A stretch of DNA of 64,000 nt from Minisyncoccota bacterium (GTDB lineage Bacteria > Patescibacteriota > Minisyncoccia > Phycocordibacterales > Phycocordibacteraceae), in the NCBI GenBank assembly GCA_028695415.1, contig JAQVIY010000003.1, positions 47,132 to 111,131 on the forward strand, given 5' to 3'. A model generated the notes under the pieces. The model did not search any database. It was not told the origin of the DNA and saw nothing but the letters and a program-made list of their open reading frames with translations. The position numbers and the translations under genes are program-made. Shown here in pieces: positions 19,382 to 23,853 of the stretch (within the stretch, counting starts at the first letter, position 1; each line of letters opens with the position of its first letter).

Positions 19382-19440
19382 TAAAGGTATGCTATCCTAG
19401 AGTGCAGGTGGCAGATCCTTATAACACAGTTTCAGTCCCA

Positions 19441-19521
19441 ATGAGACGAGCTTTTTACGGCTTACACCAGCAAGTAATTGCCGGTCATTTTTACAATTAG
19501 GCCGTAAAACGCTCGTCTCAT
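19441..19521 (+). promoter_or_regulatory. long hairpin (21-bp stem, 39-nt loop) in the 5' leader of the DGR target gene
   Basis: ATGAGACGAGCTTTTTACGGC ... GCCGTAAAACGCTCGTCTCAT with one mismatch. Ends 33 nt before the AAGGAG RBS and the ATG at 19562. Confidence 0.4.
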
Positions 19522-19561
19522 TCGAGACAAGTCGCTAGTCCCGACGGTTCGGGCAAGGAGA

Positions 19562-20359
19562 ATGATGATGACCGCGAGGATCACATCAGAGCAAGAGAAG
19601 CAATTCAATCGTTTCGTCGAGGACGCCATCAGCAAGGCGCGCAAAGAAGTCGATCCCGACAAGGATGGCCTCCAGCGGCTCATCGAGCGTGGGGGCGAGT
19701 TCCAGGCTTACGTCGTGGCTGGCATTGCACGTTTCGCTGCAAAAGCACCGGACTACGACCTGGCTCGAACCATTCTCGGCAAGGATTTCATTTCTCCCGA
19801 GGATATCATGAAGTCGCGCAGGGGGTTCATCTACACGGACGATCAGCTCGCGCAGTACGGCGACACTGTGCCTTCGCAAGAAGTGCTTGAGTGGTGTCGC
19901 GACAACGACTACATGCTCGTCGCTGGCCCCAACCGCCCTATGTCGCTCCTCGATGTCCGCGATCTCAAGCGCGACCACTTCTACTCGAAGGAAGGCGGCT
20001 GGTACGCGGAGCAGAAGTTCGCGGAGAACGACAAGGTTGATACTCGATGGGTCATGCTTCGCAAAGGGCCGGTTCTCAATTCGACCTCGAAGAACTGGAA
20101 TGAGCAGCAGACTCTCCTGTCCGAGACCGAGGTGACGCCCAACGTCGCCGGAGTCGCCTGGTGCGTTACCACGTACAAGGCGGTCAGGAACGTCTACTTG
20201 CTTCCGGGTGTCTACGTCCGCACTTCTTCGCTGGACTCGGACGGCGTTCGTGTGAGCGTCGGCAGCTTCGATGCCAGGGGTCTCCGCGTCAGCGGCGGCT
20301 GGGGCGGCCGCCGCGGCGATGGCCTCGGTCTCGCGTCTTCCCGGAAGACTGAAACTTGA
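19562..20359 (+). CDS. DGR variable (target) protein; C-terminal 38 codons form the variable repeat
   Basis: 265 aa with an AAGGAG RBS. 3' end carries the VR. Coding frame places TR adenines in AAC codons (NVNNNWDDNRS in TR versus RVSGGWGGRRG in VR). C-terminal DGLGLASSR tail could be the end of a C-type-lectin-fold ligand-binding domain. Confidence 0.75.
   Translation: MMMTARITSEQEKQFNRFVEDAISKARKEVDPDKDGLQRLIERGGEFQAYVVAGIARFAAKAPDYDLARTILGKDFISPEDIMKSRRGFIYTDDQLAQYGDTVPSQEVLEWCRDNDYMLVAGPNRPMSLLDVRDLKRDHFYSKEGGWYAEQKFAENDKVDTRWVMLRKGPVLNSTSKNWNEQQTLLSETEVTPNVAGVAWCVTTYKAVRNVYLLPGVYVRTSSLDSDGVRVSVGSFDARGLRVSGGWGGRRGDGLGLASSRKTET
20231..20344 (+). repeat. DGR variable repeat (VR), 114 bp
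   Basis: Differs from the TR at 16 positions. Every one of them is an adenine in the TR. The 3'-terminal 27 bp GATGGCCTCGGTCTCGCGTCTTCCCGG are identical to the TR (IMH-like). Confidence 0.85.
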
Positions 20360-20389
20360 TCTCTTGAGGACTTGTTCCTCTTGAATCCT

Positions 20390-20417
20390 CGACCACTTGC
20401 GCTTGCGCAAGTGGTCG
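20390..20417 (+). terminator. GC-rich hairpin 46 bp downstream of VR (terminator and/or DGR cis element)
   Basis: CGACCACTTGC-GCTTGC-GCAAGTGGTCG followed by a TTTTCTTT run. Confidence 0.55.
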
Positions 20418-20712
20418 TTTTCTTTGATATACTATTACGTATCACGCTAATGAAGGTCGGGTTACGGTTCGACCTCGCGGGATGTCTCACTTGAGATTCG
20501 CCAGAGTATCGTCGATCCACGGGTCACGATAGTGTGCGAAACAGGATAGAGATTCTAACTTCTTGCCCATTTTTTGAGAAGGTGTCCCTCGGGGCTGCTT
20601 CCGCAATACATTCAAGATTGAGAGGATATAGGCATGTGGCATAAGGCTCTGCGGTAACCCTCAAAGTCTGGTGCCGCGCACAAGCGGGTTATAGATGGAA
20701 ATGGGTAAACAA

Positions 20713-20826
20713 CTGGACTCGGACGGCAATCGTGTGAACGTCGGCAGCTTCGATGCCAAGGGTCTCAACGTCAACAACAACTGGGACGACAACCGCAGCG
20801 ATGGCCTCGGTCTCGCGTCTTCCCGG
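20713..20826 (+). repeat. DGR template repeat (TR), 114 bp, non-coding
   Basis: 24 adenines, 16 of them substituted in the VR. No non-adenine differences. The overlapping +strand ORF 20695-21024 is judged an artefact. Confidence 0.85.
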
Positions 20827-20846
20827 CAGTCGTTTCTCTATCTCGA

Positions 20847-20870
20847 AGAGACTCGCTCATGCGAGTCTCT
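20847..20870 (+). other. perfect 10-bp-stem hairpin 20 nt downstream of TR (overlaps the avd stop on the opposite strand)
   Basis: AGAGACTCGC-TCAT-GCGAGTCTCT followed by ATCGTTCTTT. Confidence 0.5.
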
Positions 20871-21222
20871 ATCGTTCTTTAGTAGAGCGAATCCAACCGC
20901 CGAGCATACGGCCAATCTCGTCAATATGAGTCTCAAGAACAAGATACTTCTTGTTGTCAATAGTCCTCATATCTTTCGTGAGGCGTATGAGAACGCGGAG
21001 CACATTCAACTGCACGCTTGCTGATTCAAGTACTGGCAATTTCTCCACTTTCCCCGATTGACTTGCAAGAAGTATCGCTTCAAGCACATCAAGAATACAA
21101 TTCTCACAACGTTGCCAGATTGTATATCGATCTTGCTTCGAAACATCACCGCGGTATCCGTAGAACGTCTTATACAGGTCGTAACACTTCTTAAAAATCG
21201 GTATATCTAGATTGTTAATCAT
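20869..21222 (-). CDS. avd: Avd-like accessory variability determinant (four-helix-bundle / 23S-rRNA-intervening-sequence protein family)
   Basis: 117 aa, helical and basic. The ...KQDRYTIWQRCEN... and C-terminal ...IDEIGRMLGGWIRS motifs match the Avd/four-helix-bundle family pattern. Sits between TR and RT. Start codon is back-to-back with the RT start (CATATG). Confidence 0.6.
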   Translation of the reverse strand: MINNLDIPIFKKCYDLYKTFYGYRGDVSKQDRYTIWQRCENCILDVLEAILLASQSGKVEKLPVLESASVQLNVLRVLIRLTKDMRTIDNKKYLVLETHIDEIGRMLGGWIRSTKER

Positions 21223-22299
21223 ATGAAGGTGTATAGGAACTTATTTGAATCAATAATCTCGACAGAGAATCTGTTCGAGGCGTGGGACGTGTTCAAACGC
21301 GACAAGAGGAATAGACCAGATGTCGAAAGATTCGAGAAGAATATCGAGCAAGAAGTATTCAATCTTTCGCATGAGCTTCGTACAAAAACGTATTGGCATG
21401 GGTCGTACTATGCTTTTCTGATTCGCGATCCAAAATTACGGAATATCAATAAGGCAACGGTGCGCGACCGAGTTCTGCATCATGCGATATTTAAGATTTT
21501 GAATCCTATTTTTGAACCAACCTTTATACTGACCTCCTTTTCTTGTCGTATCGGAAAAGGGACGCATAAGGGAGTGGAGTATTTGGCGAATTCGTTGCGG
21601 GCGGTGAGTCAGAATAATATCCATTCTTGTTTCGCATTGAAGTGCGATGTACGTAAGTTCTTCGACAGTATTGATCACGAAACCCTTCTCGGGGTTCTTA
21701 GGAGAAGGATTCTTGATGAAGACACGCTCTGGTTGCTCGATAATGTTATTAATAGTTACGAGACGGGCTTTACGAGAGAGAGAGAGAGAGAGAGAGAGAG
21801 TAAAAATGCGCCGAAAAAAGGCGTACCCATCGGCAATCTCACGAGCCAGCTTTTTGCCAATATCTATATGAATGAGTTGGATCAATTTGTGAAGCATGAA
21901 TTGCGAGTGAAATATTATGCGCGGTATACGGATGACTTTGTAATCCTATCAGATGACCGGGCATATCTAGAGAGTCTTATTCCGCAAATAGCAGGATTCT
22001 TGAAAACGCGATTGTCACTGTCGCTCCACCCAGACAAAGTCTTCATTCGGAAATACAATCAGGGTATAGACTTCCTCGGCTACGTCATTTTGCCGAAACA
22101 TGTAAGAGTGCGGACTCAGACGCGAAGACGGATTTTCAAAAAGATGCGTAAACAGGTTGTTTTGTTCAAGAACGGAATCATCGGTAAACCGACGTTGCTT
22201 GGTTCCTTAAACTCATATCTCGGCGTGTTATCTCATGCAGATGCCTACGAGCTGTCCGAAGATCTCAAAAATCAATTCTGGTTCTGGATGAACGATTAA
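21223..22299 (+). CDS. DGR reverse transcriptase
   Basis: 358 aa. RT motif C YTDDFVIL. The DGR-diagnostic IGNLTSQLFANIYMNELDQFVK motif (IGxxxSQ replaces the group-II QGxxxSP). N-terminal ENLFEAWDVFKRDKRN region matches the DGR RT pattern. Adjacent to TR and avd. Confidence 0.9.
   Translation: MKVYRNLFESIISTENLFEAWDVFKRDKRNRPDVERFEKNIEQEVFNLSHELRTKTYWHGSYYAFLIRDPKLRNINKATVRDRVLHHAIFKILNPIFEPTFILTSFSCRIGKGTHKGVEYLANSLRAVSQNNIHSCFALKCDVRKFFDSIDHETLLGVLRRRILDEDTLWLLDNVINSYETGFTRERERERESKNAPKKGVPIGNLTSQLFANIYMNELDQFVKHELRVKYYARYTDDFVILSDDRAYLESLIPQIAGFLKTRLSLSLHPDKVFIRKYNQGIDFLGYVILPKHVRVRTQTRRRIFKKMRKQVVLFKNGIIGKPTLLGSLNSYLGVLSHADAYELSEDLKNQFWFWMND
21774..21800 (+). repeat. (GA)13 dinucleotide microsatellite inside the RT ORF (encodes RERERERES)
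   Basis: 27 nt of uninterrupted GA repeats read directly from the sequence. In frame as written. Confidence 0.95.
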
Positions 22300-22335
22300 A
22301 TTCCTATTTATCCAAAAATACGCTAGGGTGGTCTG

Positions 22336-23853
22336 ATGGCACGAGAAGAAAGCGTCATCAGTTTTGAGGAGGTCTCCTTTGAATACGGGCACAATAAACC
22401 CATCTTAGATGAGGTCTCTTTCACGCTGCGCCGCGGGATGAAGATGGCAGTGATGGGGCAGAACGGCGCGGGGAAGTCGACCCTCTTCTCCTTGATGACG
22501 GGCGAGAAGAAGCCCGAGAACGGTGAGATACATATGAGTCACGGAATGAAAGTGGCGCTGGCATCGCAAGTGATTCCGCGCGAGAAGATGGGGCTCTCGG
22601 TGCGCGATTTCTTCGCTTCGTATTTTGATAAAAAAGTGTATAACATCGACCCGAAGATCGATGCGGTGCTTGAGGTAGTAAATCTCGAACATTACCACAA
22701 GGGCACTTCTATTTCTCTAAGCCCGAGTACAGGCGAGAGAAATAAGTCGCACCAAAAATTGCACGATAGGGAGGTGAAGACCTTCTCTGGCGGTCAGCAA
22801 GCGCGTCTCCTCTTAGCCTCGGCGCTCATACAGGAGCCTGATCTCTTGCTTCTTGACGAGCCGACGAACAATTTGGATAAGGCCGGTATCGAACACCTCA
22901 CCAAATTCCTCGTGGGTTATACGGGGACGGTCGTCGTGATCTCGCATGACGCGGAGTTCTTGAACGCCTTCACTACCGGCGTACTCTACCTCGACATCTT
23001 CACGCGGAAGATTGAGCAATACCCGGGCAACTATCACGATGTGCAGCGCGATATTCTCATTCGTATTGAGAAAGAAAACAGAAAGAACGCCCAGCTCGAG
23101 AAGAAAATTCAAGAGAATAAAGACAAGGCGAACTTCTTTGCTCAGAAGGGAGGCAAGATGCGTCTCGTCGCGAAGAAGATGCGTACCGAGGTCGAAGAGA
23201 TGGAAGGAGAAATCGTGGATGTGCGCAAGGAGGACAAGACCATTCGACCGTTTGCGATACCCGCACAAGAAGAGTTGAGCGGGGTCGTCTTCGCGCTCGA
23301 GTCGTATACGCTCCCGCATGGCAAGAAGCCCCTGAAGAAGAAGGCACATGTCTCGCTTCGTAAGAATGAACACCTCCTTCTCAAAGGTCCGAACGGCATC
23401 GGCAAATCGACTCTGCTTGAAGCGGTAGCGAAAGGCGTTGCCGAGGGTGCAACGATATCTGAGGACGTAAAGGTCGGCTACTACCGACAGGATTTCTCTA
23501 CGCTCGATTTCAATAAGACCGTGTATGACACGCTTATGGAAAACATGGGACAGCCGGACGAAAAGCGCATGCGCACCGTCGCCGCCGGATTCCTGATCAC
23601 GGGAGATACTATATATACGAAGATCGGCAGTCTCTCGGAGGGACAGAAAGGGTTAGTCGCCTTCGCCTCGCTTGTCTTGGAACGCCCCGGACTCCTCATT
23701 CTCGATGAACCGACCAACCATATCAACTTCCGCCATCTGCCGCTTATCGCGAAAGCGCTCGATCAGTATGCAGGTGCGATGATACTCGTCTCGCACGTCC
23801 CTGAATTCGTTTCTCAGATACGCATCGACGATGTGCTCGATCTAGAGAAATAG
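22336..23853 (+). CDS. ABC-F family ATPase (two tandem ABC domains, no TM domain; EttA/Uup-like)
   Basis: Two Walker A motifs (GQNGAGKST, GPNGIGKST) and two ABC signature regions (FSGGQQARLLLAS and a degenerate second signature LSEGQKGLVAFAS). Inter-domain linker present. 505 aa. Confidence 0.85.
   Translation: MAREESVISFEEVSFEYGHNKPILDEVSFTLRRGMKMAVMGQNGAGKSTLFSLMTGEKKPENGEIHMSHGMKVALASQVIPREKMGLSVRDFFASYFDKKVYNIDPKIDAVLEVVNLEHYHKGTSISLSPSTGERNKSHQKLHDREVKTFSGGQQARLLLASALIQEPDLLLLDEPTNNLDKAGIEHLTKFLVGYTGTVVVISHDAEFLNAFTTGVLYLDIFTRKIEQYPGNYHDVQRDILIRIEKENRKNAQLEKKIQENKDKANFFAQKGGKMRLVAKKMRTEVEEMEGEIVDVRKEDKTIRPFAIPAQEELSGVVFALESYTLPHGKKPLKKKAHVSLRKNEHLLLKGPNGIGKSTLLEAVAKGVAEGATISEDVKVGYYRQDFSTLDFNKTVYDTLMENMGQPDEKRMRTVAAGFLITGDTIYTKIGSLSEGQKGLVAFASLVLERPGLLILDEPTNHINFRHLPLIAKALDQYAGAMILVSHVPEFVSQIRIDDVLDLEK

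Follow-up and report, generated by a model that had tools for sequence, protein, structure and literature searches.

We analysed a stretch of 64,000 nucleotides (nt) from a Minisyncoccota bacterium (GenBank assembly GCA_028695415.1, contig JAQVIY010000003.1, positions 47,132 to 111,131 of the forward strand), hereafter the window, and focused on a diversity-generating retroelement (DGR) whose reverse transcriptase (RT) gene contains a long GA dinucleotide tract. The RT open reading frame (ORF) lies at 21223..22299 on the + strand, encodes 358 amino acids (aa) and matches the Pfam family RVT_1 (E=3.9e-24). Its closest solved relative is the Bordetella RT bRT (8ub7, E=5.8e-42, aligned over residues 2-344), and its product is identical to P0001, a protein of a Candidatus Pacebacteria metagenome-assembled genome (MAG). 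A DGR target gene of 265 aa, taken from the ORF list and without a Pfam match, is located at 19562..20359 (+), and its 3' end carries a variable repeat (VR) at 20231..20347 (+). This VR was recognized by comparison with a template repeat (TR) at 20713..20829 (+); the repeat is 117 nt long and 85% identical between the two copies, and of their 17 differences, 16 are located at TR adenines. The accessory gene bAvd (20869..21222, - strand; Pfam PF22296, E=4.2e-18) is divergent from the RT gene. With target, VR, TR, bAvd and RT in place, the locus has the sequence of a complete, bona fide DGR.

The part of the RT that is N-terminal of the tract contains motifs 1 to 3, and the C-terminal part contains IGNLTSQ, YTDD and the thumb. 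The IGNLTSQ codons (21830..21850, +; residues 203-209) correspond to the DGR-type RT motif 4 ([I/L]GxxxSQ), while those of the catalytic YTDD (YxDD; residues 235-238) lie at 21925..21936 (+). Residues P202-Q209 are invariant across 60 homologues, and Y235-D238 are invariant as well. The tract itself, at 21774..21800 (+), consists of (GA)13 and a final G, that is, 27 nt with 100% matches, and ends 29 nt before the IGNLTSQ codons begin. The sequence around it reads GGGCTTTAC GAGAGAGAGAGAGAGAGAGAGAGAGAG TAAAAATGCGCC, or GGGCTTTAC-(GA)13G-TAAAAATGCGCC. The original prediction had described a perfect 27-nt GA run inside the RT, upstream of IGNLTSQ and translated as TRERERERES, which is exact at these coordinates: in the window the tract is in frame (ON), encodes RERERERE and gives the peptide T-RERERERE-S. 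It is the sole long simple repeat of the window, it is intragenic, and its unit size is not divisible by 3. Among the other dinucleotide runs of the 64 kb, the longest has 5 units, no homopolymer of 8 nt or more is present in the window, and the longest run in 200 first-order Markov simulations of the window reached 7 units. With the next run at 5 units and the simulated maximum at 7, the tract is far beyond what is expected by chance.

The window gene was then translated in simulation with its number of GA units changed. With 10, 13 (the window) and 16 units, the gene remained in frame and specified proteins of 356, 358 and 360 aa, respectively. Loss of one unit (12 units) gave an OFF product of 192 aa ending in ...RERERE*, at an in-frame TAA stop at 21801..21803 (+), and the same type of end is found in many database fragments. 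Gain of one unit (14 units) gave an OFF product of 216 aa with the tail VKMRRKKAYPSAISRASFLPISI*, closed by a TGA at 21869..21871 (+), where the alternative-frame ORF 21647-21871 ends; homologous tails are also found in databases. Both simulated OFF products lack IGNLTSQ and YTDD, and the GA repeat is stop-free in every frame.

An AlphaFold2 model of the RT built with 60 homologues had a mean predicted local distance difference test score (pLDDT) of 88.7. Its sole segment below 50 was residues 186-195, within a coil (178-205) that sits between a helix and the motif-4 helix, and the Bordetella bRT lacks about 18 residues exactly at the position of the tract. This low-pLDDT segment indicates that the in-frame tract encodes a disordered loop of Arg and Glu on the protein surface, between motifs 3 and 4, as far as the model can tell. 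A linker tolerated by the enzyme, which had been put forward as an alternative to a switch, is therefore also a correct description, the tract being the model's only low-confidence, unstructured loop.

To compare the site among relatives, as the original prediction had suggested, we scanned GTDB genomes, one per species, for runs of 7 or more GA units with a back-translated IGNLTSQ 15-45 nt downstream. At the homologous site, at least 119 species-representative loci have a pure tract of GA units, with lengths of 15 to 71 nt and a median of 23 nt; the figures on frame, purity and lineage given here refer to the matches listed. By label, approximately 95 of the 119 listed matches belong to the candidate phyla radiation (CPR), including Saccharibacteria, Paceibacterota, Berkel-, Wolfe-, Uhr-, Doudna- and Yanofsky-bacteria and others, while 10 are bacteria without a lineage name and 14 are labelled otherwise. 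The purity of these tracts is partly built in by the threshold of at least 7 pure units, and its informative part is the purity beyond that. Except for one pair (L068/L086), the most similar loci have flanks that are merely 72-85% identical. In 827 kb around the listed loci, the sole other dinucleotide run of at least 6 units directly adjoins a tract. The same pattern of GA tract and IGNLTSQ had 0 matches in 2.9 million viral contigs. Of the 120 best full-length homologues of the window RT (identity 57-71%), about 25 contain (RE)n at the site, in differing lengths, and most of the others have none. We also ran a metagenome scan that kept the 80 best tblastn matches, and 9 of 77 had a GA or G repeat; these are examples only, since the best matches favour in-frame genes and so provide no unbiased prevalence or OFF fraction.

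The frame state of the relatives was assigned by tblastn with the N part (residues 1-182) and the C part (residues 198-357) of the window RT, which was informative for 114 genomes. The two parts were in frame in 23 of them, whereas 49 would need one more unit and 42 one unit fewer to be in frame (24, 49 and 42 when the window is counted). In-frame loci are thus below one third (binomial p=0.0027 for the listed loci). A conserved in-frame Arg/Glu linker written in synonymous codons was not observed, the listed tracts being pure GA and mostly out of frame. Likewise, orthologues do not share a fixed in-frame linker, the outcome that the original prediction had named as speaking against it, as their tracts range from 15 to 71 nt and 91 of the 114 are frameshifted. 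Despite being split, the OFF genes are well preserved. The N part is stop-free in 91 of 92 OFF loci, the C-frame ORF has a median length of 459 nt in OFF and ON loci alike, and the ratio of nonsynonymous to synonymous divergence (dN/dS) is 0.02-0.19 in both halves, including OFF-OFF pairs with dS of 0.2-3.6. These values indicate that both halves of OFF alleles are intact and under strong purifying selection, with no decay. Purifying selection on an out-of-frame C half implies that it is expressed often enough on an evolutionary scale, because the frame is either often restored or bypassed. Moreover, with dN/dS this low and no further lesions, OFF states must be short-lived in evolutionary terms.

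Three MAGs each have two tract-bearing RT genes, namely L004/L041 (JBEKTP01), L031/L044 (JAZDOH01) and L084/L099 (JBEKII01). Both copies are out of frame in two of these MAGs, either sharing a frame state or differing in it, and both are in frame in the third. The 14 tract loci with labels outside the CPR (L012, L025, L065, L068, L081, L086, L092, L094, L114, L118, L013, L061, L101 and L028) were binned as Gammaproteobacteria, Pseudomonadales, Bdellovibrionales or Actinomycetota. Several of their RTs, 33-36% identical in the N half, make up a divergent clade. These loci represent either mislabelled bins or a spread of the tract beyond CPR.

Split genes were also abundant among database proteins. 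When 5.8 billion protein clusters were searched with the N half, the best 120 matches were nearly all fragments of 186-250 aa, many of them from contigs that are tens to hundreds of kb long. In 92 of these 120 matches, (RE)n leads into a stop, into 'VKMRREKEYPSAISRASF...' or into 'SKKCAEKRSADRQSHEPAFRQ...' at the C-terminal end. The tails VKMRREKEYPSAISRASF and SKKCAEKRSADRQSHEPAFRQ arise when the IGNLTSQ region is read in either wrong frame. The fragment ends agree with the simulated products of the window gene with one unit gained or lost, so the claim that a one-unit change frameshifts the RT finds its counterpart in truncated proteins already deposited. In several entries (P0130, P0148, P0166, P0186, P0197 and others), the out-of-frame halves are annotated as 'hypothetical protein' or as two RVT_1 ORFs.

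We then expanded ten clusters defined at 90% identity. All nine GA-tract clusters vary in tract length while their flanking peptides are identical. Five of the nine also contain full-length proteins (356-364 aa), sometimes differing in their number of RE repeats, and these same five hold N fragments in both alternative frames as well as 143-aa C fragments. In one groundwater population represented in JGI and ENA samples, the flanks were identical at 600 of 600 positions on each side of the tract, which was either 31 nt long (in frame, with the protein on 6 contigs) or 33 nt long (frameshifted, 14 contigs); one more contig had a 2-nt variant at the tract boundary. A similar case is found in GTDB, where the flanks of L068 and L086 match at 100% over 400+400 nt and their tracts measure 29 and 27 nt, one being OFF and the other ON. 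The proposal of a stochastic slipped-strand switch is accordingly supported through relatives, in which lengths vary and near-identical contigs are found both in frame and frameshifted.

The groundwater population with 31-nt and 33-nt tracts was also informative about the activity of the retroelement. Its TR is constant, and it has three VR alleles with 30 variable positions, 27 of which are at TR adenines. One VR allele was linked to tracts of 30, 31 and 33 nt, suggesting that the tract changes at least as fast as the VR turns over. Two OFF (33-nt) contigs had different VRs, suggesting that lineages now OFF diversified not long ago. From these sequences, the DGR appears to be active in a population that holds both ON and OFF alleles.

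GA is not the only repeat found at this site. In L121, a G11 run at 897-907 splits the RT into two ORFs, and its cluster, which has 'GGG' at the site, also includes an in-frame member of 344 aa. L190 is out of frame with G10 at the site, GA16 precedes G11 at the RT site of L181, L046 has a GA tract followed by G9 (at about 1561) and L042 has a (CT)8(GA)14 palindromic pair (at about 991). In L197, a distant RT (39% identity), (CCAG)~12 at about 538-590 encodes in-frame PASQ repeats. The in-frame peptides of all these repeats are flexible and hydrophilic. On a neighbour-joining tree of 240 N domains (117 with GA, 17 with G and 106 with none), the trait was clustered and needed approximately 37 gains or losses, compared with 79 when shuffled. 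Selection for a mutable site accounts for several repeat chemistries in one permissive loop more readily than does a need for the Arg/Glu peptide.

Taken together, we propose, with a probability of roughly 0.7, that the GA tract serves as a contingency locus of the simple-repeat kind and turns DGR mutagenesis on and off through the reading frame. Replication slippage would add or remove 2-nt GA units. Thirteen units, or any 3-unit change from that number, would yield a full enzyme of the 358-aa class with a loop of variable length. One unit fewer would expose the TAA right after the tract, and one unit more would lead into 23 out-of-frame codons and then a TGA. OFF products, without motif 4, YTDD and thumb, would make no cDNA, and the VR of the target would be frozen until later slippage brought the frame back. 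In the resulting population, a minority with an active DGR would always be present while the majority would be off. We infer that the same instability operates in this organism, that OFF alleles are without RT activity and that selection maintains the switch. At the level of sequence, the gene appears to have what defines a simple-sequence-repeat contingency gene, its length polymorphism being seen in relatives.

Several points weigh against this proposal. The exact window protein occurs on one contig and its closest N-half fragment is 77% identical, so that the instability of the window tract is inferred from relatives. Tract lengths were taken from assembly consensus, in which mixtures within a sample are invisible. 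The threshold of at least 7 units may miss short, stabilised in-frame tracts and thereby inflate the apparent depletion of ON loci, and a scan restricted to at least 7 pure units says nothing about the frequency of tract decay; interrupted tracts do exist, as in L160, P0034 and P0059. Slippage combined with purifying selection acting through occasional in-frame revertants would resemble an adaptive switch and is hard to separate from it. Finally, OFF alleles may be decoded leakily through slippage of RNA polymerase or of the ribosome.

This last point leads to an explanation in which the tract acts by recoding, as a rheostat. The polymerase or the ribosome would slip by 2 nt on the tract, every allele would yield some full-length RT and the tract length would tune the amount. 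AGA and GAG codons would indeed re-pair perfectly two bases away, and frame-independent decoding predicts the three common frame states and the selected halves equally well. RNA structure next to the tract is relevant here. In a subfamily of 15 loci (alignment A2: L002, L008, L015, L019, L027, L048, L056, L072, L078, L090, L093, L096, L111, L115 and L117), a 9-bp hairpin, CGATTTTCG-NNN-CGAAAATCG with compensatory variants, abuts the 5' end of the tract and ends on the first GA-tract base. Its helix covaries, with 89.7% of cells paired and 4 pairs changed on both sides; its score was reached by 0 of 500 shuffles, and slid controls gave at most 41%. This hairpin resembles the arrangement that Penno et al. 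reportedly described in 2015 for stem-loop-stimulated transcriptional slippage. RNA structure that stimulates polymerase slippage has been described (PMC5737552). In the window, there is no hairpin upstream of the tract (-0.2 kcal/mol) and the local RNA fold around the tract is ordinary (z=-0.59). Classical programmed frameshifts have one fixed out-of-frame relation as their hallmark, whereas offsets of 0, +1 and -1 are all present here and differ in the DNA of contigs with identical flanks. It also counts against recoding that, to our knowledge, elongation slippage on dinucleotide repeats is poorly documented. We therefore consider recoding in place of a switch unlikely, although the two could coexist, with recoding acting on alleles that switch at the DNA level.

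A non-adaptive origin has to be considered as well, with the GA run being a mutational hot spot that expands in a tolerant loop and the frameshifts amounting to repeated losses, neutral or mildly deleterious, of a DGR that is dispensable. The disordered loop tolerates any length, a DGR may be dispensable for long periods, and both decayed or interrupted tracts and relatives without any tract occur commonly, as seen in the 106 of 240 N domains without a repeat and the approximately 37 changes on the tree. Against this, the OFF halves keep dN/dS at 0.02-0.19 also at dS values of about 1 and above, and extra lesions are absent from them. Furthermore, the tracts are pure though their flanks diverge by 15-30%, three unrelated repeat types occur at the same site, and no comparable repeat is found elsewhere in the 827 kb of the same genomes, all of which leaves this explanation improbable in our view. 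Errors of sequencing or assembly, which would make tract lengths unreliable and the frameshifts spurious, are a natural concern with dinucleotide repeats that stutter in PCR-based libraries and with some MAG contigs of very low coverage (cov 1.28 and 1.75). Different samples that were assembled independently nevertheless yielded the same two alleles repeatedly, on 6 and 14 contigs whose flanks are identical, which for practical purposes excludes an artefact. In addition, of 114 independent species about 80% are frameshifted at the tract, some in each direction, and poly-G and CCAG tracts behave alike. Lastly, the N and C polypeptides of out-of-frame alleles might reassemble at the loop into an active, split RT. 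The break point does lie in a surface loop, and overlapping ORFs are predicted in L120 (3001-3681 and 3650-4081) and L121 (346-912 and 893-1387). Most predicted C fragments (143 aa, MNEFDQF...) nevertheless lack IGNLTSQ, and in the window the C frame offers no ATG, GTG or TTG between the tract and IGNLTSQ, its first Met being M216, after motif 4. We rejected a split enzyme for the window gene and regard it as highly implausible in general.

Other hairpins were found near the tracts. In the window, a small one lies just 3' of the tract, at 21807..21825 (+), with the sequence UGCGCC-GAAAAAA-GGCGUA in codons for NAPKKGV and -8.7 kcal/mol when folded alone. A hairpin is found at a comparable 3' place in approximately 30 related loci, with unrelated sequences, and the 15-locus subfamily commonly has a second hairpin 3' of the tract, often with a UUCG loop. 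Over all loci, the mean z was -0.39 upstream and -0.68 downstream of the tract, compared with +0.08 and -0.47 for control segments. As this difference is not clearly significant, we rejected hairpins as a general feature of tract loci. Some loci have TGTGGATAA upstream of the tract, which is similar to a DnaA box; this candidate was also rejected as its frame is constant and encodes V-D-N/K, and TGTGGATAA was treated as a protein motif.

The neighbourhood of the RT gene had other features. The start codons of avd and RT abut (CATATG, 21220-21225) with zero intergenic space, so that the promoter of each gene must be inside the other gene or further off. The same abutting arrangement is found in L120, with a 2-nt gap (2998/3001). 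With avd on the opposite strand, the layout of the window appears to be the B3 architecture, which accounts for 90% of CPR DGRs according to Wu et al. (PMC5758913). The avd and RT genes (window 20800-22200) have a G+C content of 42-44%, compared with 52-58% in the surrounding genome, target gene included, suggesting either a compositional constraint on both genes or a separate ancestry. A 109-aa ORF without a Pfam match (20695-21024, +) overlies the TR; most likely it is not a gene but the TR read in the frame of the C terminus of the target. An Rfam scan of 19400-22500 revealed nothing relevant.

Several known systems resemble the proposed switch. CT/AG repeats in the outer-membrane protein genes sabA, hopZ and oipA of Helicobacter pylori are dinucleotide contingency loci. 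As in those tracts, the number of intragenic dinucleotides sets the frame here, ON and OFF alleles coexist and the remaining gene is intact. The sabA repeats are discussed in PMC4081817. The H. pylori tracts are near the 5' end of surface-protein genes and vary within a pathogen species, whereas the present one is in the middle of the catalytic domain of a cytoplasmic enzyme, occupies one homologous site across an environmental radiation of phylum level and encodes a peptide loop whose variable length must be tolerated when ON. In phasevarions, phase-variable mod methyltransferase genes of Haemophilus, Neisseria and Helicobacter carry tetra- or pentanucleotide repeats within their ORFs. There too, a repeat in an enzyme ORF switches an activity with consequences at the population level, and the repeat of L197 is even a tetranucleotide (CCAG = AGCC). 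However, the activity switched here would be targeted gene hypermutation by reverse transcription and not epigenetic regulation. A mutator gene is switched in Salmonella, where mutL has 6-bp repeats. As with mutL, a slippage-prone repeat lies in a gene that controls the supply of mutations, making mutability switchable; mutL repeats, in contrast, change in frame and affect mutation genome-wide, while here the reading frame is shifted and only the DGR target is mutagenised. The RT of Bordetella phage BPP-1 (bRT, 8ub7) belongs to the same family and shares IGxxxSQ and YxDD, the Avd partner and adenine-specific changes from TR to VR, but differs from the window RT by its lack of the approximately 18-residue insertion at the tract.

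In the full-text literature that we searched, we found no description of a repeat tract or of phase variation in a DGR RT, although an earlier mention in the main survey of CPR DGRs (Paul et al., 2017) is possible. Roux et al. (2021) do not mention frameshift or slippage, and 'frameshift' in Wu et al. (2018; PMC5758913) refers to TR/VR indels. Compared with the known cases, the novelty is that the switched gene is an engine of targeted hypermutation, that the loop is inside a catalytic domain and that one homologous site bears the tract in at least 119 species of a bacterial radiation, with several repeat types occurring there.

For genome surveys, about four fifths of the tract-bearing RT genes in reference genomes are two ORFs, annotated as hypothetical or partial. 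Counts of CPR DGRs from surveys relying on intact RT ORFs will be too low, or the elements will be taken for pseudogenes. A distance of 1.5-2 kb separates the tract from the VR, and single long reads could link the state of the switch to the VR haplotype. Beyond the window, we think it somewhat probable that a hypermutable repeat at this permissive loop (GA, poly-G or tetranucleotide, having evolved more than once) is the stochastic master switch of targeted hypermutation across CPR, with OFF as the commonest state, which would make diversification a bet-hedged, heritable and reversible trait of a minority of cells. This would apply to CPR/Patescibacteria, whose genomes are small, whose regulators are few and whose DGRs are unusually abundant. 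How DGRs are regulated and how useful variants are protected are largely open questions, and a reversible, heritable switch in the frame of the RT would supply both. If true, a mutational switch controls a mutational engine in these bacteria, a previously unrecognised restraint on DGR activity.

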